Shown here piece by piece: positions 16,572 through 60,008 of a DNA stretch of 64,000 nucleotides (position 1 is its first letter; every line of letters starts with the position of its first letter). The stretch covers positions 312,638 through 376,637 of the forward strand of contig JBDKLC010000005.1 of assembly GCA_039795775.1 (NCBI GenBank), in the 5' to 3' direction. Under the pieces are notes generated by a model, which saw nothing but the letters and a program-made list of their open reading frames with translations, did not search any database and was not told the origin of the DNA. The position numbers and the translations under genes were made by a program. Source of the stretch: Candidatus Parcubacteria bacterium. Its GTDB lineage: Bacteria; Patescibacteriota; Minisyncoccia; Phycocordibacterales; CAIZLB01.

Positions 16572-16669
16572 GTTTTGTATGATATCAAATCTAGAGTGTT
16601 TGGTGAAAAGGTGTAGACAAATCTATTTATCAGTGATATCGTATTTTCGGGAAAAGAACACCCACACAC

Positions 16670-16918
16670 ATGACAGAACAAGAACCAGTTAATATAATCA
16701 GACTCGAAAGTCGTCCCGGCGTATGCGTCGGGTATCAGGTAAACGGAGCGAACGGCACACGTTTCGTTCAACCTATCGGGGCGCCAGGATACGTCATCCC
16801 AGCACCAGAACCAGAGCCAGAACCAGTTGCACCACCTTCGCAACTCGGTCGTCCCAGCGATGGTCGCAGCAGGCGTGAAGGCCACGGAGCCCTCCAATTC
16901 CTCGGCATTCGCTATTAA
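16670..16918 (+). CDS. Small GC-rich ORF with PEPEPEP repeat (possibly a foreign islet or structured RNA instead)
   Basis: An 82-aa ORF in a local GC spike, far above the flanking sequence. No SD sequence or family signal. Confidence 0.25.
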   Translation: MTEQEPVNIIRLESRPGVCVGYQVNGANGTRFVQPIGAPGYVIPAPEPEPEPVAPPSQLGRPSDGRSRREGHGALQFLGIRY

Positions 16919-16961
16919 CGCGACTCAACATCAACCCTTAACCAAGGAAATAAATCCAAAA

Positions 16962-17003
16962 GGCGGTCCCGCGAAAACTCGCAGGACCGCCTTTCAACTT
17001 TTT
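16962..17003. terminator. Intrinsic terminator (12-bp GC hairpin + T-run), bidirectional
   Basis: GGCGGTCCCGCG-AAAACT-CGCAGGACCGCC followed by TTTCAACTTTTT. Sits at the 3' end of ychF (minus) and of the small plus-strand ORF. Confidence 0.7.
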
Positions 17004-25726: not shown

Positions 25727-26015
25727 GAACACCAGGTTTCATAAACGAATCAGTCATAGACACAAACGCTCGTCGGGCATCAAGCAATGAAATACTTGAT
25801 TCTTGGAGTTCATCACGAGAAATAAATACAGGAAACCAATTGTCGACAAAAAACTCACGGCCCTTGCCATCAAACGTTCTCTGACCTCGTCGCTTTGATT
25901 GCCATGGGAGACGATGAAACCCGACATCATTTGTATTTGTAAAAAATCGCTCATGTTCAGTCTCTTCAGGGTGAACATAGCCTTCTTTATAAATATGCGG
26001 AGTTTGTATAGACAT
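25707..26015 (-). CDS. Hypothetical protein overlapping umuD start
   Basis: A 102-aa ORF co-directional with umuDC and overlapping it by 20 nt. No motif. Confidence 0.35.
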   Translation of the reverse strand: MSIQTPHIYKEGYVHPEETEHERFFTNTNDVGFHRLPWQSKRRGQRTFDGKGREFFVDNWFPVFISRDELQESSISLLDARRAFVSMTDSFMKPGVHAFQKK

Positions 26016-26094
26016 AGATTCTTGGTTTAACTTCTAATGTCTATAGTATAGTGAACAAGTGTTCACCTACGCAAATATGTTATCCCCAGGAGCT

Positions 26095-26694
26095 TTATTC
26101 AGACTTTGATCGAGCTTTTGCTTTTGTTTCTGCTTTTTTAAGCTTTCTGAATTCACTTACAGTCATAAGAGTACGCATATCGTCCATTCTATCTGTATAC
26201 ATAATGCCATCGAGATGATCAATCTCATGCTGAATAATCCGAGCTTCAAGTTGATTAAAATGCTTTGTCACGCGCTCTCCTTCTGCATTTGTATATTCAA
26301 CATCTACTTCAGTTGGCCGAGGTACTTTTCCGAGTACGTCAGGGAGACTAAGACATCCTTCCCAGTCAGCCTTAATTTTATTTGAAAATTGTATGATTTT
26401 AGGATTTATAAATACTTCTTTTACTATTTTTTTAACTTTTCTTGTAGATGTATCGTGTATGTACATCACAAAAACACGCTTATTGTTTCCAAGTTGTGGA
26501 GCAGCAATACCTACACCTTCATATTGCTCGCAAGCCAAAAACATCTTACGGAGAAATTGTTTGAATGGTGCTGAAACCATTTCTTGCTTTGATACAGTTT
26601 TAGATACTGCTCGAAGTATTGGATTACCAAGCATCACGATAGGTGTCTTCTTTTTTTCTCTAGGTGCTGATGATACTTTTTGTGATGAAGCCAT
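26095..26694 (-). CDS. def: Peptide deformylase
   Basis: The three PDF motifs: GVGIAAPQLG, EGCLSLP and HEIDHLDG. Confidence 0.9.
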   Translation of the reverse strand: MASSQKVSSAPREKKKTPIVMLGNPILRAVSKTVSKQEMVSAPFKQFLRKMFLACEQYEGVGIAAPQLGNNKRVFVMYIHDTSTRKVKKIVKEVFINPKIIQFSNKIKADWEGCLSLPDVLGKVPRPTEVDVEYTNAEGERVTKHFNQLEARIIQHEIDHLDGIMYTDRMDDMRTLMTVSEFRKLKKAETKAKARSKSE

Positions 26695-26700
26695 GTGAAT

Positions 26701-27348
26701 TTATTTATTTTTAGAAAATATTTTATTTAGTACTTTTCGAATTGTCTGAATGAGACGGTCTCGACTGTCTTTATCTTTTGCAAAGTGCATGATCGTAGGA
26801 ATAAACGAAAGAATAATAATAAGAACAATGATAGGAATAAGATAGTGATCAATATTTGGTACTACAGAGCCAAGGAAATATCCAAGAAGCGTGAGGCCCA
26901 CAGCCCACAACAACCCTCCAATAATGTTGTATGCGAGAAACACACGATAATTCATTGTGCCTACACCAGCTAGTATTGGTGTGAATGTTCGTACGACAGG
27001 AAGAAATCGAGCAAGAATGATGGACTTCTTTCCATGAATAGCAAAAAATTCATTTGCTTTATGAAGATTATCTTTGTGAAAAAAGAGTGAGTCTTCTTTT
27101 GTAAAAATCTTAGGACCAACTTTTTTACCAAACCAGTACCCCACACTGTCTCCCACTACCGCTGCTATAAATGTTCCGATACAAAGAACCCAAATATTAA
27201 GAAGTCCTTGAGAAGCCAAAAAACCCGCTGTAAAGAGCAAACTATCTCCTGGCAAAAAGAAGCCGACGAGAAGGCCGGACTCAGCAAATATTATAGAAAA
27301 CACGCCAATATAGCCGACGGTCTTGATGATTGTGACGAGGTCAAACAT
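26701..27348 (-). CDS. DedA/SNARE-associated family membrane protein
   Basis: Typical DedA N-terminal amphipathic region (GVFSIIFAESGLLVGFFLPGDSLL) and several TM helices. Confidence 0.8.
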   Translation of the reverse strand: MFDLVTIIKTVGYIGVFSIIFAESGLLVGFFLPGDSLLFTAGFLASQGLLNIWVLCIGTFIAAVVGDSVGYWFGKKVGPKIFTKEDSLFFHKDNLHKANEFFAIHGKKSIILARFLPVVRTFTPILAGVGTMNYRVFLAYNIIGGLLWAVGLTLLGYFLGSVVPNIDHYLIPIIVLIIILSFIPTIMHFAKDKDSRDRLIQTIRKVLNKIFSKNK

Positions 27349-27380
27349 ATCACCAGCTTACACTATTGCTCTAAATTGGT

Positions 27381-27434
27381 CCAAAACAAAAAACGCGTCA
27401 TGGACGACCCTAATTCGAGTTGTCCCTGACACGT
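27381..27434 (-). terminator. Intrinsic terminator downstream of the 2OG oxygenase gene
   Basis: Imperfect 16-bp hairpin followed on the minus strand by TTTTTGTTTTGG. Confidence 0.55.
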
Positions 27435-27489
27435 TTTGATTTGTATGAATTATTTCTACTTTTTCGAAGTGTGATCAGCCATGGAGTAT

Positions 27490-28335
27490 TTACTCCTTAA
27501 AAAACTGACGAAACTCTTCATGAGGCATACCGTAGTTGAAGCCGAGGTTTTCTTTGTGTAAATCCTGAAGGCGTCCCTTGAGCTTGTCATACACAGGCCC
27601 GGCGAGCTGCACAAAGACCACAGCAGAAAGACGACCTCCCCGTTCGCCCTTTTGAGCAGTCTCACCATTTGAGATCACACGGTGCACAGTAGCGGTCAAA
27701 CGCCCCTCAGATCGCAATTGAAGCTGCATAGAAGGAATAATGACTGTCTCACCCTCAGATACAGGCATATCACGCCATGTCTTCTGTGGATCGAGATACT
27801 GAAGCCCAGGAGCGCTCTCAAAGAGATGGAGTGTGAATCCACTTTGATCCGTGTGAGCTTCCGCGGTTTCGATGCCTACGGGCACATCGTCAAAGTAGTG
27901 AATGAACCGAATGAAGTATGCATCTTCACGCTCTGAGACTTCCTTTTCAAATCCATTCAAACCAAACTCATGCTCGGCTTGTCTGGCAAATCCAAGGACC
28001 ATCACTTTGATATCGCTAATAAGCGCCGTAGCAGCTTGGACGAACGCGGTGGCAGTTGGGTCGCTGATCTTTGCTGCTTCATTCATGAGCCACGCAAGAC
28101 CCGCCAAGGCCAAATCAAAGTTTTCTTTCTTGTCTTTACTCGGACCTGTCTGACCTTTTTTCTCATACCCCACGCCAGCGCTGCCGTTGCTATAGCCAAA
28201 CTTCACCTTCACCTCGTCTGGTAATGAACAAAACTGTTTCCACAATTTCATCACCTCTTTTACTCGTGCCCGAATTTCAGGTGGATATGCAAGTGCAACA
28301 TATCCTTCTTTTTCCAATTGTTGAATTGATTTCAT
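27490..28335 (-). CDS. 2-oxoglutarate/Fe(II)-dependent oxygenase (IPNS-like DIOX_N + 2OG-FeII_Oxy)
   Basis: HxD...H facial triad (EAHTDQSGFTLH ... TVHRV). Start placed at the internal MKSIQQ, because the upstream part of the ORF is a terminator hairpin. Confidence 0.7.
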   Translation of the reverse strand: MKSIQQLEKEGYVALAYPPEIRARVKEVMKLWKQFCSLPDEVKVKFGYSNGSAGVGYEKKGQTGPSKDKKENFDLALAGLAWLMNEAAKISDPTATAFVQAATALISDIKVMVLGFARQAEHEFGLNGFEKEVSEREDAYFIRFIHYFDDVPVGIETAEAHTDQSGFTLHLFESAPGLQYLDPQKTWRDMPVSEGETVIIPSMQLQLRSEGRLTATVHRVISNGETAQKGERGGRLSAVVFVQLAGPVYDKLKGRLQDLHKENLGFNYGMPHEEFRQFFKE

Positions 28336-28400
28336 AAATAGTAGTTGTTTGTGTTGAATGTGGTCACAGATGTAACCGTTATCAATTGTAGAAAGTCCTG

Positions 28401-28441
28401 AAAACAAAAAAAGCGAGGATGTCCTCGGTGAAGACATCCTC
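28401..28441 (-). terminator. Intrinsic terminator after the wHTH-NUDIX gene
   Basis: 9-bp stem GAGGATGTC/GACATCCTC followed on the minus strand by TTTTTTTGTTTT. Confidence 0.7.
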
Positions 28442-28448
28442 GGCACTA

Positions 28449-29177
28449 TTATGGTCGCTTATCTCCGCGCTTTATTTGCTCCGTAAAAAAGTATGGCAAT
28501 GAGTCTATTTTCCCATCTTTGATAGCTTTGAGAACCGTAGTAATTGCAGCAATAGAATCAAACGGATCTGACTCATTCTGAATAGCTTCGTCTATTGGTA
28601 CCCAAAAGTTTTCTCCGTAATCAGATTCTCGAATCAATGTCCCAGATGAAGTTGTGGCATATGCAACTGGAAATAATACATCTGAAAATAATTCATTCTG
28701 TACGTACATCATTCGTCGTTCCATACCTATAGTCCTAAACGAAGCATCAAGACCAGTTTCCTCTTTGAGCTTTCGAGTGGCCGCTGCATCGATCGTCTCA
28801 CCTTTGAGCACAACGCCTCCCATTACACCTACTTTTCCATACGAAGGATTACTTTTTCGTCGTTGGTTCAAAATTTGCAATTCACCACCAACAACTCGAG
28901 ACACAATTGTAATTACATTTATTTTATACAAACTGACAATCTTTTGTGAGTCAGTAATTGGCAAAAAGTCAGCCACATGATGAACACCTATTTCTGATAA
29001 GGCGTAGCCATCATCGCTTTTCGTTAGATATCCTTTTTTAACTAAAAACTGCAAATGATAATTAAACAAATCATTAGGAATTTTTTCTTCAGGTTGAAGT
29101 TCGCTATATCGAAGAGACTTGGCGTTTTTAAGCTTACTGAGAATGTGATTTTGAATTGGAGAAAAATTTTGATGCAT
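28449..29177 (-). CDS. Winged-HTH + NUDIX hydrolase fusion protein
   Basis: N-terminal wHTH-like segment. Nudix box GGVVLKGETIDAAATRKLKEETGL. Confidence 0.75.
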   Translation of the reverse strand: MHQNFSPIQNHILSKLKNAKSLRYSELQPEEKIPNDLFNYHLQFLVKKGYLTKSDDGYALSEIGVHHVADFLPITDSQKIVSLYKINVITIVSRVVGGELQILNQRRKSNPSYGKVGVMGGVVLKGETIDAAATRKLKEETGLDASFRTIGMERRMMYVQNELFSDVLFPVAYATTSSGTLIRESDYGENFWVPIDEAIQNESDPFDSIAAITTVLKAIKDGKIDSLPYFFTEQIKRGDKRP

Positions 29178-29284
29178 ACGCGTTTCCGTTTGATCCTCGT
29201 GAACAGCTATTCAGCGAGTATCTCTTCGGCAATGACGCAATTCTACATATATTTGAAAAAGACGCTACCGAGGAATGCCTCGGC

Positions 29285-30145
29285 TTACAACACCCGTCCA
29301 AAGAAGCCCGCAAACACCTCGTTGAAGGCTAATATAATGGCGATCACAAGAATCATTAAAAGTCCGATAGTTAAAGATGAGTTTTTTCTGAGTTTTCCCC
29401 AAATAGACATCCCCAAGAGCACGAGCGTAATAACAAACGCTAAGAGCGTAAAAAGTATAGAAATAACAGTACGTGGAGCTCCCGCTACAGCACCGAAAAC
29501 GCTTGCACTTTGTGTTGCCGACACAGTCGACGCATCTTTCGACGCATCTCCTACTTTGTCTACAGTTCCAGAAGCAGCCACAACCTTTGGTGTTCCGAAA
29601 AATTCAACAATAAATATCGCTCGATAGCCGTTATACCGACCCTCAGCTGTGGCAATACCAATTTCAGTAAAGTTTTTATTTAAAATATTTTCACGATGCG
29701 TCTGTGAATTCATCCATGCATTTACCACATCTTTTGAATCGAAAAAGTTGATAGCGAGATTCTCGCCTGCATATTTGTAGTCGTATCCAGCTTTTTCAAA
29801 CCAAGACCATGGCGATGTACCATCAGGGCCGGTATGAGAAAAATATTGCTTTGAGGCCATATCATTTGCTTTGGCTTGAGCTGCCTGTTGGAGTACGGCA
29901 TTTGGAGTAAGGTCACGAAGCTTGTCTCGTGATCGCTCGATGTTTGTAAAATCAACGACACGTAGTGACAGTACCTGAGCAAACATGCCATTTCGCGGCA
30001 GTAAGATAAGTGAGTGCGACAAAAATACAACTTCAATAATAAGCACAGCACCAAGCAAGACAGATGCTACCGACTCGCGTAAGAGATGCGGATGGTGATG
30101 GTTTGAATCGTGCGATACGAAGTATTTAATAAAGAAGTTTTTCAT
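29285..30145 (-). CDS. CAP (SCP/PR-1/YkwD-like) domain protein, membrane-anchored
   Basis: CAP-domain signature segments (FSHTGPDGTSPWSW, YKYAGENLA, VVNAWMNSQTHRENIL). TM helices at both ends. Start set at MKNFF. Confidence 0.7.
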   Translation of the reverse strand: MKNFFIKYFVSHDSNHHHPHLLRESVASVLLGAVLIIEVVFLSHSLILLPRNGMFAQVLSLRVVDFTNIERSRDKLRDLTPNAVLQQAAQAKANDMASKQYFSHTGPDGTSPWSWFEKAGYDYKYAGENLAINFFDSKDVVNAWMNSQTHRENILNKNFTEIGIATAEGRYNGYRAIFIVEFFGTPKVVAASGTVDKVGDASKDASTVSATQSASVFGAVAGAPRTVISILFTLLAFVITLVLLGMSIWGKLRKNSSLTIGLLMILVIAIILAFNEVFAGFFGRVL

Positions 30146-30426
30146 AGCCAGATTGAAATGATTGCATACACATAAAAACTCAATAGTACAAGCAAAAATA
30201 CTGAAATCAATTTTACCCAGAAATACTGATAATATTTTAATAGTATTGCTACAACAATAAGTGATATCACAACCAGTGGCCACATTCGACTAAATATGTA
30301 GTTCATCGACAAAACACCACCTTCGATTCGGAAGCCAATAAATGGAATATTTAAAAGTAAAATGGCCGCAGCCAGAAGATACTTAATCATTGTCCTATAG
30401 TAACAGGCTATGCTGCACTTTTCCAC
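30142..30426 (-). CDS. Small hydrophobic membrane protein
   Basis: A 94-aa ORF with three predicted helices, abutting the CAP gene. Confidence 0.4.
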   Translation of the reverse strand: MEKCSIACYYRTMIKYLLAAAILLLNIPFIGFRIEGGVLSMNYIFSRMWPLVVISLIVVAILLKYYQYFWVKLISVFLLVLLSFYVYAIISIWL

Positions 30427-30448
30427 TATTCATTCTCTACCATATTGA

Positions 30449-30964
30449 CTAGTTATTTACAAAATCAACAATCAATTCTTTACCCACACCTCCCTCTCCA
30501 AAGGAAATTCGCTCATGTGGAATATATACAGACTTTAATTCGAAACTTTTTTTATCACTTGATACATTGTAAAGTACTTTATATTTTTGGATATAAACCC
30601 AGTAACTCTCGTCTGTAGCATCAGGACAAATTTTCTGTACGTTACAAGAATCTTGAACACCCTGCGCCATGCGAGTAAATTTTGTATGAGCAATAGTATC
30701 TAAAGACGCAACAATATTTTGTTGAAAAATAAAAAGCAATATAACACACAGTGAATATGTAGCAGACTTATTGTATTCATTAAACTTAATTTCATCATGC
30801 TTGAACTTCCAATAGAACAATTTTATTACTCGTATCAAGAATGCAACCGCATGACCTGCAACGAGAACCATTAAGATCATGGCTACAAAATTACTTACTG
30901 ACCGCTCAAATAAGAACAATGTGCCTATTGCAAAAAGTCCAAAATATCTAGTTATTATTTTCAT
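30449..30964 (-). CDS. Hypothetical membrane protein
   Basis: A 171-aa ORF with N-terminal TM helices. Confidence 0.45.
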   Translation of the reverse strand: MKIITRYFGLFAIGTLFLFERSVSNFVAMILMVLVAGHAVAFLIRVIKLFYWKFKHDEIKFNEYNKSATYSLCVILLFIFQQNIVASLDTIAHTKFTRMAQGVQDSCNVQKICPDATDESYWVYIQKYKVLYNVSSDKKSFELKSVYIPHERISFGEGGVGKELIVDFVNN

Positions 30965-31002
30965 AAATATAAATTAACTATAACACACACATCGTTGTAG
31001 GT

Positions 31003-31049
31003 TCATGTATACAAATTCAAATAGCGCAGAGGTGTGTCCTGTGCGCTAT
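31003..31049 (-). terminator. Intrinsic terminator after GC-rich membrane protein gene
   Basis: 8-bp stem ATAGCGCA/TGCGCTAT followed on the minus strand by TTTGAATTTGTAT. Confidence 0.5.
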
Positions 31050-31107
31050 CATAGTCTTCGCTATTGCATGGTGACCTAACCATATATTGATTCATCGTTG
31101 CGCGATG

Positions 31108-31680
31108 CTATTCGCGGTTGTCGGGATGCCCTTCGCCTGGGCCTTCTCCTGGGCGCGCCGCATTGAGCAAGTCGTCGGCAGTGACTGAGGTATTTCCGAC
31201 ATCTCGAACTCCCTGGATGTAAGGCCCCTGTTCGCGAGGACCATCAGGAGTCATCACATGTGAATCCGCAAGGATCACGACAACTTCTACGGTTTCACCT
31301 GAATACTGTGATTCCTGCGAGCCGCCTTTTGGGACAGGCATATAGAGGAACGTATAGTAGGCATACATGATGCAGATGCCGGCGATGATGCTGCCCACCA
31401 TCCAGTTGTAGGAGATGAAGGACAGCAACGGCAGAAGCACCACGGGCCAGTAGACCACGTTTGCTTTGGTGAAGCCATCGGCACTGACGGTGCGGAACTG
31501 GCCGAACAGGAACACTGGTGAGAACACCAGGAAGAAGTCCAGCCAGAGTGCGGCCGTAACCGAACTTGTGACTTTGTAGGCAGCGCCTCCCGCCAAGATT
31601 TGGGCGAAAAGCAGAACGAGCAGAGCCCGAACTGGCATGCGATGCTTTTGAACGATGTGTGACGCGATTTGCGATTTCAT
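31108..31680 (-). CDS. Hypothetical 4-TM membrane protein in GC-rich islet
   Basis: ORF with strongly elevated GC relative to its flanks and 4 hydrophobic helices. Confidence 0.55.
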   Translation of the reverse strand: MKSQIASHIVQKHRMPVRALLVLLFAQILAGGAAYKVTSSVTAALWLDFFLVFSPVFLFGQFRTVSADGFTKANVVYWPVVLLPLLSFISYNWMVGSIIAGICIMYAYYTFLYMPVPKGGSQESQYSGETVEVVVILADSHVMTPDGPREQGPYIQGVRDVGNTSVTADDLLNAARPGEGPGEGHPDNRE

Positions 31681-31908
31681 GGGTTTGTTGTGGTATGTGG
31701 GTTAGACAAATGCTTACCAGAGACCTTCTCCTTCAGCAGAGAACATCCATGTATGTAAAATACGTACACAACACTATCTACAGCATGGATACTTTCTGCT
31801 AAAGGAGGACAAACCCTGTCACGAGAATCAATATGTGAAGGAACTTAGTTCGATGTATATAATAGCATGAAATAGTATAAAAGTCAATGCATACATAATG
31901 CAAAAGAT

Positions 31909-31939
31909 GCAAAAGAAAAGGCCCCAACCGGAGTTGGGG
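31909..31939 (-). terminator. Intrinsic terminator after the second GC-rich islet gene
   Basis: Hairpin CCCCAAC/GTTGGGG with a CGGA loop, followed on the minus strand by TTTTCTTTTGC. Confidence 0.6.
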
Positions 31940-31988
31940 ACCTTGAGAAGTTGTGCGCAAGTCTTCTTAGTAGTGCGCGTGGGCGGGA

Positions 31989-32327
31989 CTAGTCCGTGTC
32001 CCACATCCAGGTGCCGTCATCGCCCTGGTGAGCGCTGCCGGCGTCGGTGCGCATGGAGCCTTCGTCAATGGGGCGAGCCCCTCCGACGCACTTCATCAGA
32101 TGAGTTCCCTCATAGCGGACGTGCAGGCACCCCTTGTGCAAGCACAAGATGATCCATTGGGCGGCCAGCGAGTCGGTCGCGTTGGCGTAGTCGGCCTGAT
32201 ATCGGCCGGGGACAATCAGGTATTCTCCAGCTTTTTCGGTGGAACCGATTTGCTTGGCGAGAATGGCGCGAGCGCCTTTTTCACCTTGGTCGGCGATGAT
32301 TGCTTTAACTTCAGCAAGTGTTTGCAT
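31989..32327 (-). CDS. Hypothetical protein in GC-rich islet
   Basis: A 112-aa ORF with GC near 60%. No motif. Confidence 0.5.
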   Translation of the reverse strand: MQTLAEVKAIIADQGEKGARAILAKQIGSTEKAGEYLIVPGRYQADYANATDSLAAQWIILCLHKGCLHVRYEGTHLMKCVGGARPIDEGSMRTDAGSAHQGDDGTWMWDTD

Positions 32328-32385
32328 GGTTTGTTTCTTTCTATCAGTTGAATGTTGAATTTAGGTTTATGAAACAGCCACATGG

Positions 32386-32437
32386 TGACTGCATCTTGGA
32401 ATGCCCCTCCGTAGAGAGGCGCTTAAAGATGCAGTCA
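32386..32437. repeat. 12-bp perfect inverted repeat with 28-nt spacer
   Basis: TGACTGCATCTT ... AAGATGCAGTCA, upstream of the islet gene. Confidence 0.6.
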
Positions 32438-32559
32438 GACACTCATTGAAACTTTAAATGTGCTTACAAGTACAATAATAGCATATTTAATGCTATTTGT
32501 CAACATACCCTAAGCCCCTATCCTACTAGCAAAATATGGCTTTTTTTAAGCTTATTGGA

Positions 32560-33033
32560 CTACTCTACCTGACTCTTTATCTCTTCAAGTGCTGTAGATA
32601 ATGTTTGTTCTATTTCAATTTTTTCAGCATCAGAAATTTGTCTACCTGGCGATTTTGTAAATACAAAATAAAGCGGACTATCATCTGACAAGTCAAAAGT
32701 CATACCGAAATTTTTTCTAAAAGGTCTCTTTAGTTGTGCTACGAGCTGCGCAGCAATTTTTTGCTCTTCTACGTCTACACTGAGAAATTCAGAATCAACA
32801 CTTACCATGGCAGTCGTGCTTGTAAACTTTAGTCCTAACTTAAACTTACTCATATCTTTCTTTTCTGCGCTTGATTCAGCTGCTACTACTTCTGGATTGG
32901 TTTGACCGAAATTTGCTTCGTGTGATGGCATATTGTTTGGTGTTATGAGTAAATTGTAGCATATATAAAAAATAGAAAACCCCCACGTCCATGTAACGTG
33001 AGGGGTAGAATTTTGATTGACACTTCCAAGCAC
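32560..33033 (-). CDS. Hypothetical protein (the true start may be the internal Met at MPSHEANFG)
   Basis: ORF only. Acidic, with no motif. Confidence 0.45.
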   Translation of the reverse strand: MLGSVNQNSTPHVTWTWGFSIFYICYNLLITPNNMPSHEANFGQTNPEVVAAESSAEKKDMSKFKLGLKFTSTTAMVSVDSEFLSVDVEEQKIAAQLVAQLKRPFRKNFGMTFDLSDDSPLYFVFTKSPGRQISDAEKIEIEQTLSTALEEIKSQVE

Positions 33034-33043
33034 CGTGCGTGCA

Positions 33044-33544
33044 TTAATCGCTTGGTTTACATTTTGGCTTCATGAAAAGCCAGCGTGTAGCGCTTGCAAA
33101 GACAGCGTTGAGATCAATCAACCCGCTGCTGCTATGCGTGCTGCTCACGTATTGGATGTAGCTGGCATGACTAGCTTCAGGGTTGAAAGGCTCGTTGATT
33201 CTGATGAAACCTTTGTCTTGCTCTTGTGAAGCAATTAACGGGTAGTCATCAAGACACGGAACCAATCCAATTTGACTCGCTCGGTCACATATCTCACCAG
33301 CTGTCACTTGGCCATTGGCAAAACCAAGACTGGCAGCGGTGACGACTACTAAAGTAAAGTCTGGTAACTCTGTTTTTGTATACCAGAAACGTGCAGGACG
33401 CACTATCCGCGCTGGGTTTAAGGCTCTCTTTAGAAGCCGCCTTACTTGATCTGGATTTTCGATGAGTTCCTGCATGCGGCCTTGGCTCATGCGAGGAAGT
33501 GATGTTGCTATTGTTGCTAGTAGTTTTGCCGTTTGTGGGCACAT
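33044..33544 (-). CDS. Hypothetical protein
   Basis: A 166-aa ORF with no recognisable motif. Confidence 0.45.
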   Translation of the reverse strand: MCPQTAKLLATIATSLPRMSQGRMQELIENPDQVRRLLKRALNPARIVRPARFWYTKTELPDFTLVVVTAASLGFANGQVTAGEICDRASQIGLVPCLDDYPLIASQEQDKGFIRINEPFNPEASHASYIQYVSSTHSSSGLIDLNAVFASATRWLFMKPKCKPSD

Positions 33545-33604
33545 TGCGTTTTTTCCTTTCGGTGTTCGCTTTGAATGCTAGAGGACATCCACTCCATGTG
33601 GGTA

Positions 33605-33658
33605 GTCATAGCTCGCATATTTCAATTTTAATTACAGTTCAAACATGCGAGCTATGAC
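33605..33658. repeat. 14-bp perfect inverted repeat with 26-nt AT-rich spacer
   Basis: GTCATAGCTCGCAT ... ATGCGAGCTATGAC, in the 5' region of gene 33044..33544. Confidence 0.6.
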
Positions 33659-33776
33659 CAACCTGTGCTTGCAACATAAAGAACTACTGGAGTGTAGTTA
33701 TACAACTTTTTGTAAATAAGTCAACGCAGGTATTCACTGCTGCTTTATCATCCGCAGTCTCCTATCAAATAAAATA

Positions 33777-33809
33777 ACAGCCCCCGAAATGGAGGCTGTT
33801 CTTTTATTT
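33777..33809. terminator. Hairpin + T-run (AACAGCC/GGCTGTT), forming with the next 19 nt a diverged copy of the tRNA-Ala 3' end-plus-terminator unit
   Basis: 7-bp stem with an 11-nt loop, followed by CTTTTATTTG and then the 19-nt tRNA 3'-end copy. Confidence 0.5.
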
Positions 33810-33821
33810 GTGGACCCTACA

Positions 33822-33925
33822 GGATTCGGTCACAGGTCTCGCCGACATGCGGCTCGCCCGCGACCCCGCCTCCCTCGTCTCGGTTCGCCTTGCTCACAAC
33901 GAGACTTCAGTCCGGCTTTCTCATC
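33822..33925. repeat. GC-rich ~100-nt tRNA-associated structured element, copy 1 (candidate ncRNA or mini-insertion)
   Basis: Shares a 52-nt identical 5' module and a 19-nt 3' module with the copy at 60009..60109. The variable centre forms a hairpin in both copies. Flanked by a 19-nt direct repeat of the tRNA-Ala 3' end. Confidence 0.6.
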
Positions 33926-33943
33926 AAGTAGCTCAGGAAATAG

Positions 33944-33980
33944 AAAACACCAGATATATCGTCTGGTGTTTTCTATTTCT
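33944..33980. terminator. Bidirectional intrinsic terminator between element copy 1 and tRNA-Ala
   Basis: 8-bp stem ACACCAGA/TCTGGTGT flanked by an A-run and a T-run. Confidence 0.65.
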
Positions 33981-33981
33981 G

Positions 33982-34054
33982 TGGACCCTACAGGATTCGA
34001 ACCTGCCACCCCCTCAGTGCAAATGAGGTGCTCTACCAAATGAGCTAAGGGCCC
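33982..34054 (-). tRNA. tRNA-Ala (anticodon TGC)
   Basis: Manual cloverleaf: acceptor GGGCCCT/AGGGTCC with the G3:U70 Ala identity pair, D arm GCTC...GAGC, anticodon loop TTTGCAC, T-loop TTCGAAT. CCA is not encoded. Confidence 0.9.
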
Positions 34055-34512
34055 GTTTTGTTGTGAGAATATAATAGCCTAAATTTTTAAAATAGCCAAG
34101 CCCTGCCCTCTTTCTATCCACAGGCAACACATAAAGGCGACATCTGAGAAATGAAAAAGCCATCCTGTGTGGATGACCTTGTGTAAAAAATTTTAGACGG
34201 AGTCTAAAGAGTGGGCCGAAGCCCACAGAACATATACTGACGACTCTGAGGTGGCCAAGGACATTCGGTGGCACTGGTACACGAATATTGACGAGAGCTG
34301 TTTTGCTCAGTGGCCTACATTGCGGCCTAGCCATGTATGATTCGAGCGATCGGTTCGCAACGCTTTGACGGGCAAGCGCTAAACATCGTTGGTCTCATAG
34401 CGTCCGAGAGACCTCATACACCTTGGCCACCTTCTCTAGTCATTAGTGGCCTGTCCAACACTTTACTACATTTATCTAAAAAATCAACCCATTTACACTG
34501 ACATACTCTGAC

Positions 34513-35550
34513 CTAAACAGTTCGTCGTCGCATAGCGAGATTGAGCATGTGTTTGAGGAATTCGTGTGCTTTTACACCTGCAGCTTCGAGAGATTTGAGG
34601 AATGGTGAGTGCTCACCAAGACCAGGCTGTGTGTTTATTTCAATAAGATAAACGCCTCGAGTCGGAGATACGATGAAATCGGCTGATGAATAGTGGTCGA
34701 TACCCATGCCTGTGTGTACTCGTCGAAGAATGTCATTGATCTGTGCTTTTTCTTCAGATGTTAGCTGCGCAGGTACTTGATGATGAAAAAGACCTGACTG
34801 CTTTGTGGCGTAGTCGAAGATATGATCTTTCTTGCCTTTTTGTCGGCCTTCTTTGTGTTCGCCTTGTGGGTCGAGATGATGCTTCACTTCTACAGGCATA
34901 AGTGTGTAGATGTCGTTGCCACGAAAATCTTCGAGTGTTCCTGAGATGATTTCCTTTCCACTAATAAATTCTTCTACTACTATTTCTGGAGAAAATTGTC
35001 GAGCGTGGTCGATGGCTTCGAGGAGCTCTTGGAAGTTTGTGGCGTGTGTGACACCAATAGATGAGCCAAGTCCTCGGGGCTTTACCACAACAGGCATTGG
35101 GAATGACCGGAAAAGGTCGTGTGCAAGAGGTTCGAGGTTGTCTGTCTTATTCACAAACAAATCTTTGTAGTAGGGAGTCTTGATACCATGCGCTTTGAAC
35201 TGCTCTTTTGCCATAGACTTGTTCATAGCCACAGCAGATGTAAGTGAGTTTGATCCAGTAAACGGAATTGAAAACGCTTGGAGGATTTTTTGGATTTTGC
35301 CGTCTTCGCCATTTTCTCCGTGAAGCGCATTAAAAATAACATCTACTTTTTTGAGAGCTGCTTCTGGTTTGAGTGGAATACCATCAATGTGCCACTCGCC
35401 TTTTTTATCAATAAAAATATCTACAGGAGTGTAGAGTTGAGACATATCAGAAGATCGAAGAAGGTCGATGATCCGTTTGCCTGTTTTGAGAGACACTTCA
35501 TATTCTGATGAATTGCCACCTCGGAGAATGCCTACTTTAATAATTGCCAT
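34513..35550 (-). CDS. ddl: D-alanine--D-alanine ligase
   Basis: ATP-grasp Ddl N-terminus (IIKVGILRGGNSSEYEVSL). Start set at the internal MAIIK. Confidence 0.85.
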   Translation of the reverse strand: MAIIKVGILRGGNSSEYEVSLKTGKRIIDLLRSSDMSQLYTPVDIFIDKKGEWHIDGIPLKPEAALKKVDVIFNALHGENGEDGKIQKILQAFSIPFTGSNSLTSAVAMNKSMAKEQFKAHGIKTPYYKDLFVNKTDNLEPLAHDLFRSFPMPVVVKPRGLGSSIGVTHATNFQELLEAIDHARQFSPEIVVEEFISGKEIISGTLEDFRGNDIYTLMPVEVKHHLDPQGEHKEGRQKGKKDHIFDYATKQSGLFHHQVPAQLTSEEKAQINDILRRVHTGMGIDHYSSADFIVSPTRGVYLIEINTQPGLGEHSPFLKSLEAAGVKAHEFLKHMLNLAMRRRTV

Positions 35551-36043
35551 TCCTAAAGTATATCCTAAGAATAAAAAAACTCCCTGTGTATTACTTGTTA
35601 CAGAGAGGTCATTACTATCCAAATAAAAGTTCGGGGCACCTACGCGATTGCGCAGATGCCCCTTATGCCCGACCAATTGATATGGGGGGTGTAAATGTAC
35701 GTCCGTAGGACTGATGTCGTGGAGCGAAACCCTCGCCTAATTGAAGTACTGGCATAAACCCAATAGCCGTAAAGGAGTCAGACCCCTTTTGTACTCCTGT
35801 AACTAACACAGGTGGGAATAGAGAGCTACAAAAGACACGCTCCCGCTCGAGATTCCGTTTCGCGCCGGCAAACACCTGCGTTACCACATTAGTGAGTATT
35901 GGCCCCACTCCACGATATCAATCGTCTATGAACATACTGAAAGATCTACTGACTGACCGAATCACATAGTATCCTTCTTTTCGAACAATGTCAAGTATTT
36001 TATAAAAATGTGTGTACAACCCAAAATATCTGCTCCTTCTACG

Positions 36044-37363
36044 CTATCGAGGTAAAAATCCTTGATTGTCACTTCTCTTCTTTTTGTGGAAGGTAATAGC
36101 AAACCGGTGAGCCTCAGCATTGAGCCGAATAATATCGTCTTGGAGTTGTTCTGACATCTGATTCAATGTATTCAAAGCTTCTTTATTGAGAATTTCTCGT
36201 GCTTTGTGGCGGTCATCTTTTACAACAGAAATAATAGTCGGCCATGTGATGTCCACATCTCCGAGTTCTTCTTGTCGCTTCTTTACTTGATCGAGCACCT
36301 TCTGTACAGCGTTTATTTGCCCCTTTCCTCCGTCAATGAGCATGACGTCTGGCATTGGCCATTCAGGATGATTGAATCGTCGCTTGAGCACTTCTTGGAG
36401 TGCAGCAGTATCGTTTGAACGATCTACAGAACGAATAATAAATTTTCGATACATGTTTTTGTCGAATTCACCATTGGCCATAGCGACCATGACACCCACC
36501 ATGTTTTTTCCTGACATATGTGCAATGTCGTACGCTTCCATTCGAAATGGTTTCGCGGGTTGATGAGTTTGAGTGTCGGCATCATTCTTTTGATACGCAG
36601 TAATAGACTTCTCTTTTTTGATCATTGAAATATCCTGAATATGCGTAAGAGCCTGAAGTGTTCGTTTCACTTCGTGTGCTTTCTCGAATTCCATTGTCTT
36701 TGCGTATGCTGTCATCTGTTTTTTGAGCAAACCTACGACTCGGCTCTTTTTTCCCTCAAAGAAGAGTTTGATATGTTCGATCTGTGTTTTGTATTCTTTC
36801 TGATTCATTTCGCCTGTACATACACCTGGACAAAGGCCTATAGACCGATTGAAACACGGCTTCCCTTGAAGTGGTGTACATGTATTGTCTCGATATGGAA
36901 AAATCCGACGAATGAGTTTCATCGCTTCTTTGAGTTCGTTGCCGAGTGGGTATGGTCCGAATATATATTTGTATGAAAAATCTACCGCCTCTTGTTCGAG
37001 GTTTCGGCCACGCACTACAAGCACACGAGGAAAGGCTTCGTCGGTCATCACAACGTAGTTGAAACTCTTATTATCTTTTTCTTTTGTGTTGTATCGGGGG
37101 AGATGCTTTTTAATAAGCTCTGATTCGAGGATAAAGGCCTCGAGTACAGAGTCAGTTTGTTCAAAGGTAATCTCATCAGCGAGTGTGACCATGTCTACAA
37201 GGAGTCGTCCACGGGTTTTTATGAGGTCATTTGAGAAGTAACTTCGAACACGATCTCGGAGGCTGGTTGCCTTACCGATGTACAAAATATCCTTATTCTT
37301 CCTGAAGAAATAGACTCCAGGAGCGTCAGGTAACTTCTTCTTTTGTATGTATTGACTATCCAT
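36044..37363 (-). CDS. uvrC: Excinuclease ABC subunit C
   Basis: GIY-YIG N-terminal domain (PGVYFFRKNKDILYIGKATSLRDRVRSY) and UvrC length. Confidence 0.9.
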   Translation of the reverse strand: MDSQYIQKKKLPDAPGVYFFRKNKDILYIGKATSLRDRVRSYFSNDLIKTRGRLLVDMVTLADEITFEQTDSVLEAFILESELIKKHLPRYNTKEKDNKSFNYVVMTDEAFPRVLVVRGRNLEQEAVDFSYKYIFGPYPLGNELKEAMKLIRRIFPYRDNTCTPLQGKPCFNRSIGLCPGVCTGEMNQKEYKTQIEHIKLFFEGKKSRVVGLLKKQMTAYAKTMEFEKAHEVKRTLQALTHIQDISMIKKEKSITAYQKNDADTQTHQPAKPFRMEAYDIAHMSGKNMVGVMVAMANGEFDKNMYRKFIIRSVDRSNDTAALQEVLKRRFNHPEWPMPDVMLIDGGKGQINAVQKVLDQVKKRQEELGDVDITWPTIISVVKDDRHKAREILNKEALNTLNQMSEQLQDDIIRLNAEAHRFAITFHKKKRSDNQGFLPR

Positions 37364-37393
37364 ATCAAGTATTATATAATATATTTCGGAAAC

Positions 37394-37846
37394 ATGAAAG
37401 ATAAACATTCTCTCGCCGCCGTGCTGGCAACCTCAGGGTCGTCAGCTTCACCATTCACATCAATCCCAACCATTACAAGTGTGAGTCTCTCGTCGCACAT
37501 ACCATGGCTAAGTGAACTGCATGCAGTTCTCAATCCACCCGACACTTCTCGCAAGGAAGCATACGTCCTCGGACTTGCAATTGAAGTCCTCAAAGAACGC
37601 ATCGCGGTTCTCAATCGATATGCAAACCGCACAACTGTCGCAACCATCAGTGCCTTCGAAATCGCTCAACTGGAACAAATCTTTTGTATTCCAGTTGAAC
37701 ATGACAGGGCTCCCGCAAGGATCAATACCATCAACGAGCATGCTCGTGCAATGGTGGTCTGTCTCCAAGAGGCAGTCGATCGGCTCACACAGAAGGCCGA
37801 ACGATTAATCCCAGCAGAACCATTCCCAACTGGTTCATCAAACTAG
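37394..37846 (+). CDS. Hypothetical protein, GC-richer gene between convergent uvrC and uvrA
   Basis: A 150-aa ORF with elevated GC and its own strong terminator downstream. Confidence 0.5.
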   Translation: MKDKHSLAAVLATSGSSASPFTSIPTITSVSLSSHIPWLSELHAVLNPPDTSRKEAYVLGLAIEVLKERIAVLNRYANRTTVATISAFEIAQLEQIFCIPVEHDRAPARINTINEHARAMVVCLQEAVDRLTQKAERLIPAEPFPTGSSN

Positions 37847-37870
37847 CTCGAGCTTTAGCTCCGGCAAACA

Positions 37871-37920
37871 CAGTCCCCCGTCCGATCACTCGGACAGGGG
37901 CTGTTTCTTTTATTTTATTT
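37871..37920 (+). terminator. Intrinsic terminator (GC hairpin + TTTCTTTTATTTTATTTTT)
   Basis: CAGTCCCCCGTCCGA-TCAC-TCGGACAGGGGCTG followed by a long T-rich tract. It also abuts the uvrA stop. Confidence 0.75.
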
Positions 37921-40566
37921 TTATCTTTTCTTAAGGACCTTTCTGAGATACTGACCTGTGTAGCTTTTTGCATTGTTCGCAATCTCTTCTGGCGTACCTT
38001 TTGCAATAAGCTGCCCGCCATGAGTTCCACCTTCTGGACCAATATCGAGGATATAGTCTGCAGACTTGATAACATCCATACTGTGTTCAATCACGAGTAC
38101 TGTATTTCCCTTTAACACGAGTCGTTGGAGAATCTCAATGAGTTTCTTCACGTCTTCGTAATGAAGACCGATTGTTGGTTCATCGAGAATATAGATAGTT
38201 TTCTGGAGATGAGATCGGTAGAGCTCAGCTGAGATTTTTACTCGCTGTGCTTCTCCACCTGAAAGTGTTGTGGCTGACTGACCGAGTTCGAGATATCCAA
38301 GACCTACTTCATTCAATGTATAGAGACGATCGTAAATAGCTGGAACATCTTCAAAGAATGTAAGGGCTTCTTCAACTGTCATTCGAAGTACTTCATAAAT
38401 ATTCTTTTTCTTGTACTTCACTTCAAGTGTTTCTTTCATGAATCGCTTGCCGTTGCAGACATCACATGTCACGTACACGGTTGGAAGGAAGTGCATTTCT
38501 ACTTCGATCATTCCATTCCCCTGACATGTTTCGCATCGTCCACCTTTTACGTTGAAAGAGAATCGGTTTGCTTTCCATCCTCGCGCTCGAGCTTCTGATG
38601 ATTCAGCGAACATATCTCGGATATGTGTAAATGCCCCTGTGTATGTAGCTGGGTTTGATCGTGGTGTTCGTCCGATTGGTGATTGGTCGATGAGGATTGA
38701 GCGGCCGAGGTATTCTGAACCGGAGAAGCTTGTACAGTTATAAATGTTTGAACTTCGGTGGTCTTTGTCGAGACGAGCTTGGAGGTTTTTGTGGAGAATT
38801 TCATATACGAATGAAGATTTTCCTGAACCTGACACACCAGTCACGCAGACAAGTCGTCCAAGTGGTACTTCAACATTCATATTTACAATGTTGTTTACTT
38901 TTCCTCCTGTAACTTTGAGTGAACCTTTGTTGTCATCTCGTCTCTTTTCTGGAATAGGAATAACTTTGTCGCCTCGAAGATAATCGAGTGTTACTGAACC
39001 ACTCTTGTTTGTCTTGGCAGTAAGGAGTTCATCGAGATAACCAGAAGCTACTACATGTCCGCCGTGTACTCCAGCACCTGGACCAATGTCGATAAGATAG
39101 TCAGCTGCGTAGATAGTATCTTCGTCGTGTTCTACCACTACTACAGTGTTACCAAGGTCTCGAAGCTGTACGAGTGTTTCGATAAGGCGATCATTGTCTC
39201 GTTGGTGAAGACCAATTGTTGGTTCGTCGAGTACGTACATTGCACCCACAAGTCCAGAACCAAGCTGTGAAGCGAGTCGGATTCGCTGCGCTTCTCCACC
39301 AGAGAGTGTGTTGGCTTTTCGGTTAAGTGAAAGATAATCGAGACCTACGTTGTCCATGAAGACGATTCGAGCTGTGATTTCCTTGATGATAACTTTAGAA
39401 ATTTCTTTCTCTTTTTCTGTGAGAGTGAGATTATTGAAGAAGTCCAATGACTCTTTGATAGTCATGTCTGTAATTTGCACGATGTTCACTTTCTTTTTGT
39501 CATTTAATAAAAATACATTGAGTGCTTCTGGTCGAAGTCGATCTCCTTTACACACAGGACATGGATCGTTGATGAAGAAATGTCGTGTACCGAGACCGTT
39601 ACATTCAGGACATGCACCGTATGGTGAGTTGAACGAGAATAGTCGTGGCTCTACCTCTGGGAATGAGAAACCGTCGTATGGACACATGAACTTAGAAGAA
39701 ATGAGTTTGTCTGCGTCTGCAGTAACAATTCGGATGAGACCTTCTGTTTCTTGAAGAGCACGTTCAACGGCTTCGTTGAGTCGCTCCTTGAAGTCGGGAG
39801 TATTTTCTTTTATTTCTGAAATATAAAACTGATCGACAAGAACATCGATGTCGTGTTTCTTTGTCTTTGAGAGAATGATTTGTTCTCGAAGCTTTTTAAC
39901 TTCGCCGTCTACTCGCACTTCTTCGTATCCTTTACTCAAGAGATCGTAGAGAAGCTGGTAGTATTCTCCTTTTCGCCCAACAACGAGAGGCGCGTACACT
40001 TTGAACATTTCTCCGCTCACTTCTACACCCATGACTTTCTTTGCACTCTTCGCTTTTGTTTTCTCAGAATCAATTGCTTGTACTGTATTGAAAATAGTTT
40101 CCAAAATTTCTTCCTTTGAAAGTTTTTTGATTTCACGTCCGCATTCGAGACAATGTGGCTTTCCTACTCGTGCATAGAGAATTCGAAGGTAGTCGTAAAT
40201 TTCGGTGATAGTAGCAACTGTAGATCGTGGATTGTTTGATCGAGACTTTTGGTCAATAGAAATAGCTGGCGAAAGTCCTGAGATTTCATCAACATCTGGC
40301 TTTTGCATTTGTCGGAGGAATTGTCGCGCGTATGCAGAAAGAGATTCGACATATCGTCGTTGGCCTTCAGCAAAAATAGTATCGAACGCTAGAGATGATT
40401 TACCAGATCCTGAGAGACCAGTAATAACCACGAGTTTATTTCGTGGCATTTCAACGTTGATGTTTTTGAGATTGTGGGTTCGAGCACCCTTCACCACAAT
40501 CATTTCATCGCTGCCGGATTCTTTAGCCGACTCCTTTCCAGATTCTTTTTTGTTTGTTTTACTCAT
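37921..40566 (-). CDS. uvrA: Excinuclease ABC subunit A
   Basis: Two ABC ATPase modules with zinc-finger insertions (CxxC pairs) and a [10 protein letters not shown] Walker A. Confidence 0.95.
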
Positions 40567-45976: not shown

Positions 45977-46522
45977 TTATTTGTGCTTTTTTCCATCGTG
46001 CAGACGCTTCTTACCAGTAGCTACCTGCAAACGGAATAGGTCATCGACGGGTAGCCAGACTGTGTTGAAGTCTGCGACTATCTGTGCGAGGTTTTTGATC
46101 ACTCGTGACTTCGGATGAACGAACAGTCTCTCGACGAAGGGCAGAATCAAATTGATGAATCGAGCAATGTGCTGAGTAGTCACACGCTCAATCGGTATAC
46201 CAGCGCAGCGCGCCGCCATACCGACAAGTTGATTGTATGCTTCGTGGGAGCGTTCATCTATCCAGACCAGGTTGTAATGCTCGTTCGAACCGTTTTGACA
46301 TCGGGGTTGCCGATGATGACGGTTGAACTTTGCCTGTTCTCCTGGACTCAGATAGATGGTGATCTTTTCGTTGCGTTTCTTTTTTTCTTTTTTTAGCTGG
46401 GTTTGGGTTACCTCAGCTACGTGCTTTGGCCCTTTTTTTCTAGTTTTTATGGGTTTATCCTCCTTCCGAAATGCAGTATACAAAAAGCCGCGTCCAAATG
46501 GAAGCGGCTGTGGCAAAGGCAC
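45977..46522 (-). CDS. Putative HNH/His-Me finger nuclease-like protein in GC-rich segment
   Basis: RHH...N...NLVWIDERSH pattern resembling an HNH core. No Cys zinc ligands, so the call is weak. Confidence 0.35.
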   Translation of the reverse strand: MPLPQPLPFGRGFLYTAFRKEDKPIKTRKKGPKHVAEVTQTQLKKEKKKRNEKITIYLSPGEQAKFNRHHRQPRCQNGSNEHYNLVWIDERSHEAYNQLVGMAARCAGIPIERVTTQHIARFINLILPFVERLFVHPKSRVIKNLAQIVADFNTVWLPVDDLFRLQVATGKKRLHDGKKHK

Positions 46523-46908
46523 CGAAGTGCCAAATGTGTCTCTGAGCGAAAGCTTGTGGCTATCGCATTACAGAGTTGTACGGAGCTGGCTGTGGAATAT
46601 ATGTATATCCCGAAGTGTTTGTACCGAGTGCTGTCGGTACTGATCCTTGCAAGTTATGAACGTCGCGTTCGATCTGCGTTGCGATGTCCATCGGCATGCT
46701 CAGAGCTCCAAAGAACTGTTTGAGGGCAATTCCAAGCGCAAGTGATGCACTCAGAAAAAAAATCCCGGCAGCGACGCCGAGTACGAACAACATGGTATTT
46801 CCTTTTACCATAATGTTAATGATTAAAGGGGGCTTTCGAAAAGCCGACATGCTGTTCGTATTGGCGTGTGCCAATCTTCCCCCTCTTTCGAGGCAATCGT
46901 GAGGTCGC

Positions 46909-46955: not shown

Positions 46956-46957
46956 TA

Positions 46958-59988: not shown

Positions 59989-60008
59989 AGCAAACGCCCA
60001 AATATTGG

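Follow-up and report, generated by a model that had tools for sequence, protein, structure and literature searches.

Prophage morons are independent transcription units that are spread by horizontal transfer (PMC3594210). For aquifer Patescibacteria, hundreds of islands and transferred genes were collected by automated island prediction, and most of the inferred transfers took place within the phylum (PMC12455944). We analyzed a stretch of 64,000 nucleotides (nt) from a Candidatus Parcubacteria bacterium (contig JBDKLC010000005.1, positions 312,638 to 376,637; the whole stretch is referred to as the window), in which an islet of high guanine-plus-cytosine (GC) content at 31080..32330 includes two genes, both on the minus strand, for proteins of 112 and 190 amino acids (aa). 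Bacteria of the Candidate Phyla Radiation (CPR) have tiny genomes, and the gain of accessory genes by these bacteria is poorly understood. The reading that we prefer, and to which we give about an even chance, sees in the islet two self-contained accessory units with codon usage foreign to the genome, which the bacterium received laterally from the accessory gene pool of the CPR and which settled in a plastic region beside a tRNA-Ala gene.

By analogy, the phage moron would be the closest conceptual counterpart of the islet units. As in morons, each islet gene is associated with its own promoter-like site and terminator, is located between unrelated genes and differs in composition from its surroundings (here and below, promoters, leaders and terminators are predictions by consensus scan and folding). 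In contrast to morons, the islet units are located in the chromosome among housekeeping genes with no prophage, none of the five open reading frames (ORFs) of the islet region matched PHROGs, and no member of the 112-aa protein family was found on viral contigs. Of the hallmarks of a moron, the predicted autonomous unit and the deviant composition were thus detected but phage embedding was not.

With tRNA-linked genomic islands the locus shares the atypical composition, the accessory genes of unknown function and the location downstream of a tRNA gene (1.65 kb away) with a duplicated 3' end. It differs from such islands in that no integrase was found beside the islet, the islet lies outside the duplicated tRNA ends, its length is only 1.2 kb, and the neighboring ORFs range from 32% to 59% GC. 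The co-oriented small ORFs of unknown function, their mixed composition and the imperfect palindromes between them recall integron cassettes. Unlike integrons, however, the locus has no IntI-type integrase, and the islet hairpin belongs to the leader of the downstream gene, being conserved in a homologous locus (L010). An attC identity of the hairpins was rejected because the palindromes lack R''/R' cores (RYYYAAC/GTTRRRY, inspected by eye), no integrase is present and each gene has a promoter-like site of its own. A toxin-antitoxin or defence pair, which would be made of co-transcribed small genes homologous to known families, was likewise rejected, since such a pair was not found here. The survey of aquifer Patescibacteria fits a CPR-internal source; by a term search of its text, it describes neither the 112-aa family nor the leader hairpin nor the ddl-tRNA-Ala site.

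The GC anomaly of the islet is real and statistically extreme. The mean GC content of the window is 41.5%, with a standard deviation (sd) of 4.4% among 300-nt windows, and the highest 300-nt peak is located at 31976..32275 (63.0%, z 4.9), followed by 31376..31675 (56.7%, z 3.4), the latter in a tie with 16701..17000. The maximal-segment scan identified 31096..32295 as the top GC-rich segment (1200 nt, 53.7% GC, score 56), the scores of the runner-up and of the maximum in 200 base shuffles being 25.8 and 25, respectively; the islet is therefore the strongest GC-rich segment of the 64-kb window. The excess is confined to the two coding sequences (CDSs), that is 55.3% GC for the 190-aa gene and 59.0% for the 112-aa gene, while the 308-nt spacer between them (31681..31988) is 42.2% and the flanks are 34.2% and 40.5% GC. 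A preliminary description had given the islet about 60% GC with flanks 15 to 18 points lower. The anomaly itself stands, but the figure of 60% fits the 112-aa ORF only, the segment 31080..32330 as a whole being 52.8% GC. The JGI and Logan assemblies show identical junctions and 100% identity to the islet, and the NCBI metagenome-assembled genome (MAG) annotates the same proteins; all three may derive from one sample, and their agreement makes an assembler-specific chimera unlikely.

The codon usage of both islet genes is foreign to the genome, C-ending and alike between the two. The GC contents at codon positions 1, 2 and 3 (GC1/2/3) are 0.60/0.41/0.64 for the 190-aa ORF and 0.62/0.46/0.69 for the 112-aa ORF, a coding-type periodicity (GC3 > GC1 > GC2), against a native GC3 of 0.365 on average (sd 0.10; 57 ORFs of the window, non-overlapping and 90 aa or longer). 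Only four of these 57 ORFs exceed the mean GC3 by more than 2 sd, namely the two islet genes and the ORFs at 16568..16897 and 37512..37808, the latter two showing a non-coding pattern (GC1 < GC2 < GC3). When synonymous codon usage was compared with a pool of 12 native genes, the correlation was r = 0.09 and 0.30 for the two islet genes against 0.77-0.97 for individual native genes (which are themselves included in the pool), indicating that both genes depart from native usage. Between the two islet genes the correlation is r = 0.61, and their third-position C content is 0.47 and 0.39 in comparison with 0.20 in native genes. Re-encoding of the islet proteins with native codon usage gave 48.8% and 46.2% GC, so that about half of the excess is due to amino-acid content and the remainder to the choice of synonymous codons. 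No paralogue of the islet exists within the window. An antisense ORF of 107 aa (32028..32351) overlaps the 112-aa gene; dual coding was rejected because the open -1 frame is the usual shadow ORF of GC-rich DNA and is not conserved in all homologues.

The 112-aa protein belongs to a rare family. The exhaustive HMMER (phmmer) search of 1.84 billion representative proteins, for which this protein was the only query, detected about 8 small homologues (102-118 aa, 35-42% identity, E 1e-12 to 2e-4). Three long repeat proteins were also matched; we take these matches as spurious, the annotated domains being ankyrin or surface-protein repeats. The preliminary description had called both islet genes orphans. 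This holds for the 190-aa gene, for which none of the searches that were run returned a homologue, but not for the 112-aa gene. In the alignment of the family (A1), the similarity extends over the full length, with invariant G97, Q101, G105, W107 and D112 and the motifs GGAR, G-x-A-H-Q and C-terminal W-x-W-D-x-D, and the motif pattern matches the window and nine family loci. The word-indexed search of 5.8 billion proteins returned the 112-aa protein itself alone. Neither this protein nor the 190-aa protein nor their neighbors gave a match in Pfam, PHROGs, PADLOC and NCBIfam, in agreement with the earlier remark that the two proteins have no recognizable motifs.

The AlphaFold2 model of the 112-aa protein, made with alignment A1, reached a predicted local distance difference test score (pLDDT) of 86 and a predicted template modeling score (pTM) of 0.80. 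In this model a small beta-barrel comes after three helices at the N-terminus, and the product is predicted to be a cytoplasmic alpha+beta protein. The predicted fold appears to resemble no known fold, as far as the comparison goes by a profile search of PDB sequences, which gave no match for the family. The conserved cluster of the three motifs, with His, Gln, Asp and Trp residues on the barrel, probably forms a ligand- or nucleic-acid-binding pocket.

The degenerate DNA motif scan of 185,579 GTDB species genomes gave 47 matches, only two of which were true members, both already known, indicating that the family is rare. The other 45 matches were chance hits in high-GC genomes, and the single motif match on a viral contig was also due to chance. 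No family member was detected on phage records by tblastn or on viral contigs by peptide-pattern and motif scans, and no homologue was found in any high-GC phylum.

For the second gene, the claim of a membrane protein with four transmembrane segments was supported by the presence of the ORF and of about four hydrophobic helices (approximately residues 15-38, 40-62, 80-104 and 94-116). The extent of this gene differs between annotations, JGI giving 190 aa while NCBI (RL094_562, MEN9649595.1) and Logan give only the C-terminal 77 aa (31108..31341). The shorter version omits the four-helix part, which carries the strongest coding signal (codons 1-113: GC3 0.74, GC2 0.38, third-position C 0.46), and the 190-aa reading is better supported. 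No homologue of the 190-aa protein was found in the word-indexed search of 5.8 billion proteins, in tblastn of phage records or in pattern scans of viral contigs. The single-sequence AlphaFold2 model of this protein (pLDDT 56) was too poor for use.

From the predicted signals, each islet gene looks like a separate transcription unit composed of promoter, long leader hairpin, CDS and terminator-like hairpin (Table 1). The promoter-like layout of the 112-aa gene, of the TTGACA / TGnTAT type, is also seen by eye upstream of the homologues in L010, L003, L005, L009 and L066. The -10 region of the 190-aa promoter resembles a stretch just upstream of tRNA-Ala (31 nt, 74% identity). The 12-bp perfect inverted repeat reported previously was confirmed, and it extends to 24-nt arms with 79% complementarity and 4 nt between them. 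The leader of the 112-aa gene folds with -43.6 kcal/mol (z -4.35) and that of the 190-aa gene with -55.1 kcal/mol (z -4.69), none of 200 shuffles being as stable in either case.

Table 1. Predicted and annotated features of the islet and of the tRNA gene upstream
Feature	Coordinates	Strand	Description
112-aa gene	31989..32327	-	NCBI RL094_563; rare family, proteins of 102-118 aa, CPR-type genomes
190-aa gene	31108..31680	-	about four transmembrane helices and an acidic, Gly/Pro-rich C-terminal tail
Promoter-like site of 112-aa gene	32475..32503	-	TTGACA-17-TATTAT with upstream TG, 11/12 consensus positions
Leader hairpin of 112-aa gene, 52 nt	32386..32437	-	contains the 12-bp inverted repeat
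Intrinsic terminator of 112-aa gene	31912..31939	-	CCCCAACTCCGGTTGGGG, then T-tract
Promoter-like site of 190-aa gene	31859..31887	-	TTGACT-17-TATTAT with upstream TG, 10/12 consensus positions
Leader hairpin of 190-aa gene, 80 nt	31728..31807	-	
Terminator-like hairpin after 190-aa gene	31020..31050	-	9-bp outer and inner 3-bp stem, then TTGAATTTG
tRNA-Ala(UGC)	33981..34054	-	anchor of the plastic region; ARAGORN and Rfam

The leader hairpin of the 112-aa gene is kept in the closest homologue, L010 (2443..2501), where 19 of 20 positions of the 5' arm and also the 3' arm are conserved, and the distances to the promoter and to the ATG match those of the window, even though the surrounding DNA has diverged. 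This conservation indicates that the hairpin is a part of the 112-aa gene unit and not an island edge, and the inverted repeat was accordingly ruled out as an island boundary. As the hairpin has no U-tract, it probably acts after transcription start and not as a terminator; a post-transcriptional role, for instance as an mRNA-stabilizing stem or a feedback operator, is probable. L003 and L005 share another long leader hairpin (z -4.9 and -3.6), while the leaders of L012 and L009 showed no significantly stable fold. RNAalifold detected no leader structure shared by five family loci, and the idea was rejected; only the pairs window/L010 and L003/L005 have hairpins in common. In Rfam 15, only tRNAs passed the gathering threshold, and neither the leaders nor the coding blocks matched; the E-value mode gave sub-threshold matches only (MIR399, 32 bits against a cut-off of 57; osmY, 25 against 47). 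The microRNA-precursor-like matches at 31727..31808 merely reflect the long hairpin.

Both genes had been credited with a hairpin terminator of their own. That of the 112-aa gene is clear, with a 7-bp stem (31939..31922) including five G-C pairs and the tail CCTTTTCTTT. The hairpin after the 190-aa gene is less convincing, since its T-tract is weak (z -2.43 for the 96-nt stretch) and the terminator scan missed it.

The identifiable hosts of the 112-aa family are all CPR bacteria, including a Candidatus Paceibacterota (P0005), a 696-kb contig labeled Candidatus Saccharibacteria (P0010) and the Parcubacteria MAG of this study; the remaining family contigs contain housekeeping genes of the sort expected in a small genome. 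The GC content of the family loci ranges from 39% to 52%. Independent of this host GC, the GC3 of the family gene varies between 0.43 and 0.69 (locus GC and family-gene GC3: L065, 39.2% and 0.55; L010, 40.1% and 0.49; L064, 41.0% and 0.43; window, 41.5% and 0.69; L012, 41.9% and 0.63; L066, 44.7% and 0.67; L009, 47.9% and 0.60; L005, 50.2% and 0.51; L003, 51.6% and 0.55). The gene exceeds its locus in GC by 17.5 points in the window, 12 in both L012 and L066, 10 in L065 and 9.5 in L010, and it blends in within hosts near 50% GC. The third-position C content of the family gene is also raised, being 0.37 in L012 against 0.12-0.15 in native genes and 0.33 in L065 against 0.09. The unrelated ORFs beside the L012 member show the same feature (0.42 for a 138-aa and 0.28 for a 147-aa ORF). 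Our reading of this GC3 pattern is that such genes have moved repeatedly between CPR hosts that differ in GC, the main rival being selection that maintains the bias.

The genomic context of the family gene differs among hosts. It is located between UvrB and iPGM in L003 and L005, after DsbA in L009 and after LysRS in L065, and in L066 it overlaps the start of a GNAT acetyltransferase gene. The exception is L012, which has the ddl-tRNA-Ala neighborhood of the window, with the gene order ddl, tRNA-Ala(UGC), 147 aa, 87 aa, RhuM/Fic, family member, 138 aa and M10 peptidase, and its Ddl is 51% identical to that of the window. Only ddl, tRNA-Ala and the family member are common to the two loci. This common neighborhood points to long residence of the gene, or to an insertion hotspot present in both genomes, rather than to a one-off event. 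The 138-aa and 147-aa ORFs of L012 and a 166-aa ORF of the window were considered as distant family members or as homologues of each other, and both were rejected. As a separate observation, the L012 segment 1..6050 is a mosaic, in which the GC-rich 147-aa ORF (51%), family member (54%) and 138-aa ORF (52%) are interleaved with the AT-rich RhuM/Fic and M10 peptidase genes, parallel to the mosaic of the window. A 41-nt terminator hairpin occurs twice in L010 (2338..2378 and 2902..2942; 93% identity, 564-nt spacing), once on each side of a 564-nt unit made up of promoter, leader and gene. The duplication is a possible insertion footprint of such a cassette. No duplicated terminator of this kind flanks the two units of the window.

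In the window, the islet is located 1.65-2.9 kb downstream of tRNA-Ala(UGC), and the interval between this tRNA gene and a CAP-domain gene contains five ORFs without family match (166, 123/157, 112, 190 and 171 aa; 32-59% GC). The 171-aa ORF, a membrane-protein ORF directly downstream of the islet (30449..30964, minus strand), is AT-rich, with 32.4% GC and GC3 0.27, indicating that the plastic region holds compositional outliers in both directions. The ddl-based metagenome scan found only distant relatives (38-43% identity), which have neither the islet nor its flanking genes; the Ddl proteins nearest to that of the window are 38-51% identical.

An exact 20-nt copy of the 3' end of tRNA-Ala (CGAATCCTGTAGGGTCCACA) is present at 33809..33828 in addition to 33980..33999, at a distance of 171 nt, and this pair resembles attL/attR or a target duplication. 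The repeat encloses only a small non-coding element, and the islet is located outside. No further copy of the tRNA end was detected in the window at up to three mismatches. No integrase or recombinase was detected with Pfam, PHROGs and NCBIfam among the ORFs tested in 28449-35676 or in the JGI gene table for 25989..38327, and the eight ORFs tested between NUDIX and ddl gave no integrase or phage-family match. The Logan contig breaks in the region of the 20-nt repeat, at 33851 of the window.

A module of about 130 nt recurs directly downstream of tRNA-Ala (33805..33945) and of tRNA-Tyr (59995..60125), both on the minus strand. It opens with a terminator-like hairpin, the stem of which shows compensatory changes between the copies. 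The three-way-junction fold that comes next includes a 52-nt core that is identical in both copies and two further stems that covary between them (GUCUCG/CGAGAC versus GUCGCCAU/AUGGCGAC, and CUAC/GUAG versus GGGG/CCCC). The module gave no Rfam match, no copy in the other fetched loci and no viral-contig match; a new small RNA is one possible identity, a miniature integrative element with tRNA genes as its target another.

Under the lateral reading that we prefer, the source would be another Patescibacteria genome or element of roughly 50-60% GC, and the units would be laterally circulating accessory cassettes that settled between ddl-tRNA-Ala(UGC) and the CAP-domain gene. Each would carry a near-consensus sigma-70-type promoter with extended -10, a leader of about 140-180 nt with a stable hairpin, a GC-rich CDS with C-ending codons and a terminator, and the 190-aa product would be a four-helix membrane protein confined to this lineage. 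The two genes are predicted to be transcribed independently, and nothing shows that they act jointly. Several points weigh against this reading. No donor was found, the closest homologue of the 112-aa protein being only 41% identical, and the window contains no integrase, transposase or flanking direct repeats around the islet. The spacer and the leaders are AT-rich like the host; either the CDSs alone are foreign, or the non-coding DNA is under constraint or has by now adopted the host composition. The units themselves are delimited by predicted signals, and the homology search for the 190-aa protein covered the word-indexed, phage and viral sets only, exhaustive HMMER having been applied to the 112-aa protein alone. 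Finally, the L012 homologue occupies the same ddl-tRNA-Ala position, in a genome whose Ddl is 51% identical to that of the window; this may reflect old vertical inheritance, and the GC bias would then have to be maintained by selection. Such long-resident, vertically inherited genes, with GC-rich C-ending codons kept by selection on expression level or mRNA properties, are in our view an unlikely but substantial alternative. It would account for the shared position, the leader conserved with L010, the near-consensus promoters, which suggest high expression, and the finding that the GC content of the family gene exceeds that of its surroundings in eight of nine loci, strongly so in most low-GC hosts. 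However, unrelated neighbors (the 190-aa gene and the 138-aa and 147-aa ORFs of L012) share the high third-position C, which points to a regional or donor effect more than to selection acting on a single gene, no other gene is common to the window and L012 loci, and elsewhere the family is found at unrelated places (UvrB-iPGM, LysRS, DsbA). In addition, the L33 ribosomal gene in the tRNA-Tyr/tRNA-Trp interval looks AT-rich by eye (one gene, identified by reading its translation), so that high expression alone seems not to give C-ending codons.

A decayed genomic island, integrated at tRNA-Ala and since deprived of its integrase and outer attachment site, is distinctly less probable. The short distance to tRNA-Ala, the surrounding ORFs of variable GC without family match and the RhuM/Fic gene in the equivalent region of L012 are in its favor, and the duplicated tRNA end records an integration-type event; but the direct repeat brackets only the 171-nt non-coding element, no third copy of the tRNA end or integrase or phage-family gene was detected in the ranges given above, and the mixed GC of the neighboring ORFs fits piecemeal gain better. 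The preliminary description had proposed recent acquisition from a high-GC donor, possibly a host to which the bacterium is attached. Its lateral part agrees with the codon usage. A donor of 55-60% GC would be in keeping with the GC3 of 0.64-0.69, and the lack of known relatives leaves room for such a source of the 190-aa gene. A recent copy from a non-CPR host of about 60% GC is nevertheless very unlikely, since all relatives of the 112-aa protein with identifiable hosts are in CPR-type genomes with loci of 39-52% GC, the 45 pattern matches in high-GC genomes were due to chance, and the promoter-leader architecture is shared with CPR homologues. Least probable of all, and barely credible, is that the ORFs are spurious, whether as parts of a GC-rich non-coding RNA, as shadow ORFs or through chimeric assembly. 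GC-rich DNA does yield long chance ORFs, such as the antisense ORF over the 112-aa gene, the NCBI annotation of the 190-aa ORF is limited to 77 aa, and other GC-rich spots of the window are non-coding. Against this, about 8 homologues match the 112-aa protein along its entire length, and its structure model is confident, by which the idea is largely refuted for this gene. Both ORFs show coding-type periodicity, unlike 16568..16897 and 37512..37808, the membrane-helix part of the 190-aa ORF has the high GC3 noted above, the assemblies agree in junctions and proteins, and no Rfam family matched.

A further-reaching version of lateral gain, which we regard as doubtful, is that the 112-aa cassette, including promoter, leader hairpin and terminator, moves between CPR genomes keeping its own C-ending codons whatever the host GC, inserts at terminators or at the ddl-tRNA-Ala hotspot, and encodes an unseen fold. 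If this were true, the cassette would be a chromosomal counterpart of phage morons, and a CPR-specific vector or insertion mechanism would be there to be found, to which the tRNA-linked element next door might belong.

The 112-aa gene is reclassified from an orphan to a member of a rare CPR-type family. The islet is a small clean case of foreign-codon genes whose detectable relatives are only in other CPR genomes, and it points to gene flow within the CPR more than to the capture of host genes. With it comes a rare uncharacterized protein family that has a confident structure model and a conserved structured leader, and it corrects the public annotation of the membrane protein from 77 to 190 aa. 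The islet alone does not reveal a new biological mechanism.

Some other stretches of the window are also unusual. The second strongest GC-rich segment is 16710..16991 (282 nt, 58% GC), located between FKBP-like and YchF-like genes; its ORFs have a non-coding GC pattern, its fold gives z -2.9, and no Rfam match was found at E <= 1. Between UvrC and UvrA, according to the JGI gene table, the segment 37410..37903 (52% GC) contains a JGI gene of 150 aa that is opposite in strand to all neighbors, and a 98-aa ORF with GC1 < GC2 < GC3, again with no Rfam match. Three small ORFs without Pfam match are located beside the TGT gene (45977..46522, 46823..47242 and 47346..47744, minus strand). Two of them have moderately raised GC (0.48 and 0.50) with GC3 of about 0.50, indicating that small accessory genes at other places of the window also deviate in composition, if to a lesser extent. 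The 181-aa ORF of this group weakly resembles the HNH region of IscB (E 0.002, well short of the cut-off). The GC-rich intergenic segment 34170..34450 (minus strand), between ddl and the tRNA-Ala promoter, forms a multi-branch fold of about 200 nt, with a closing stem of about 12 bp (GGUGGCCAAGG... / ...CCUUGGCCACC) and with two hairpins and a U-tract after it. With z -3.58, none of 200 shuffles as stable and no Rfam family, this segment may be an unclassified structured small RNA.

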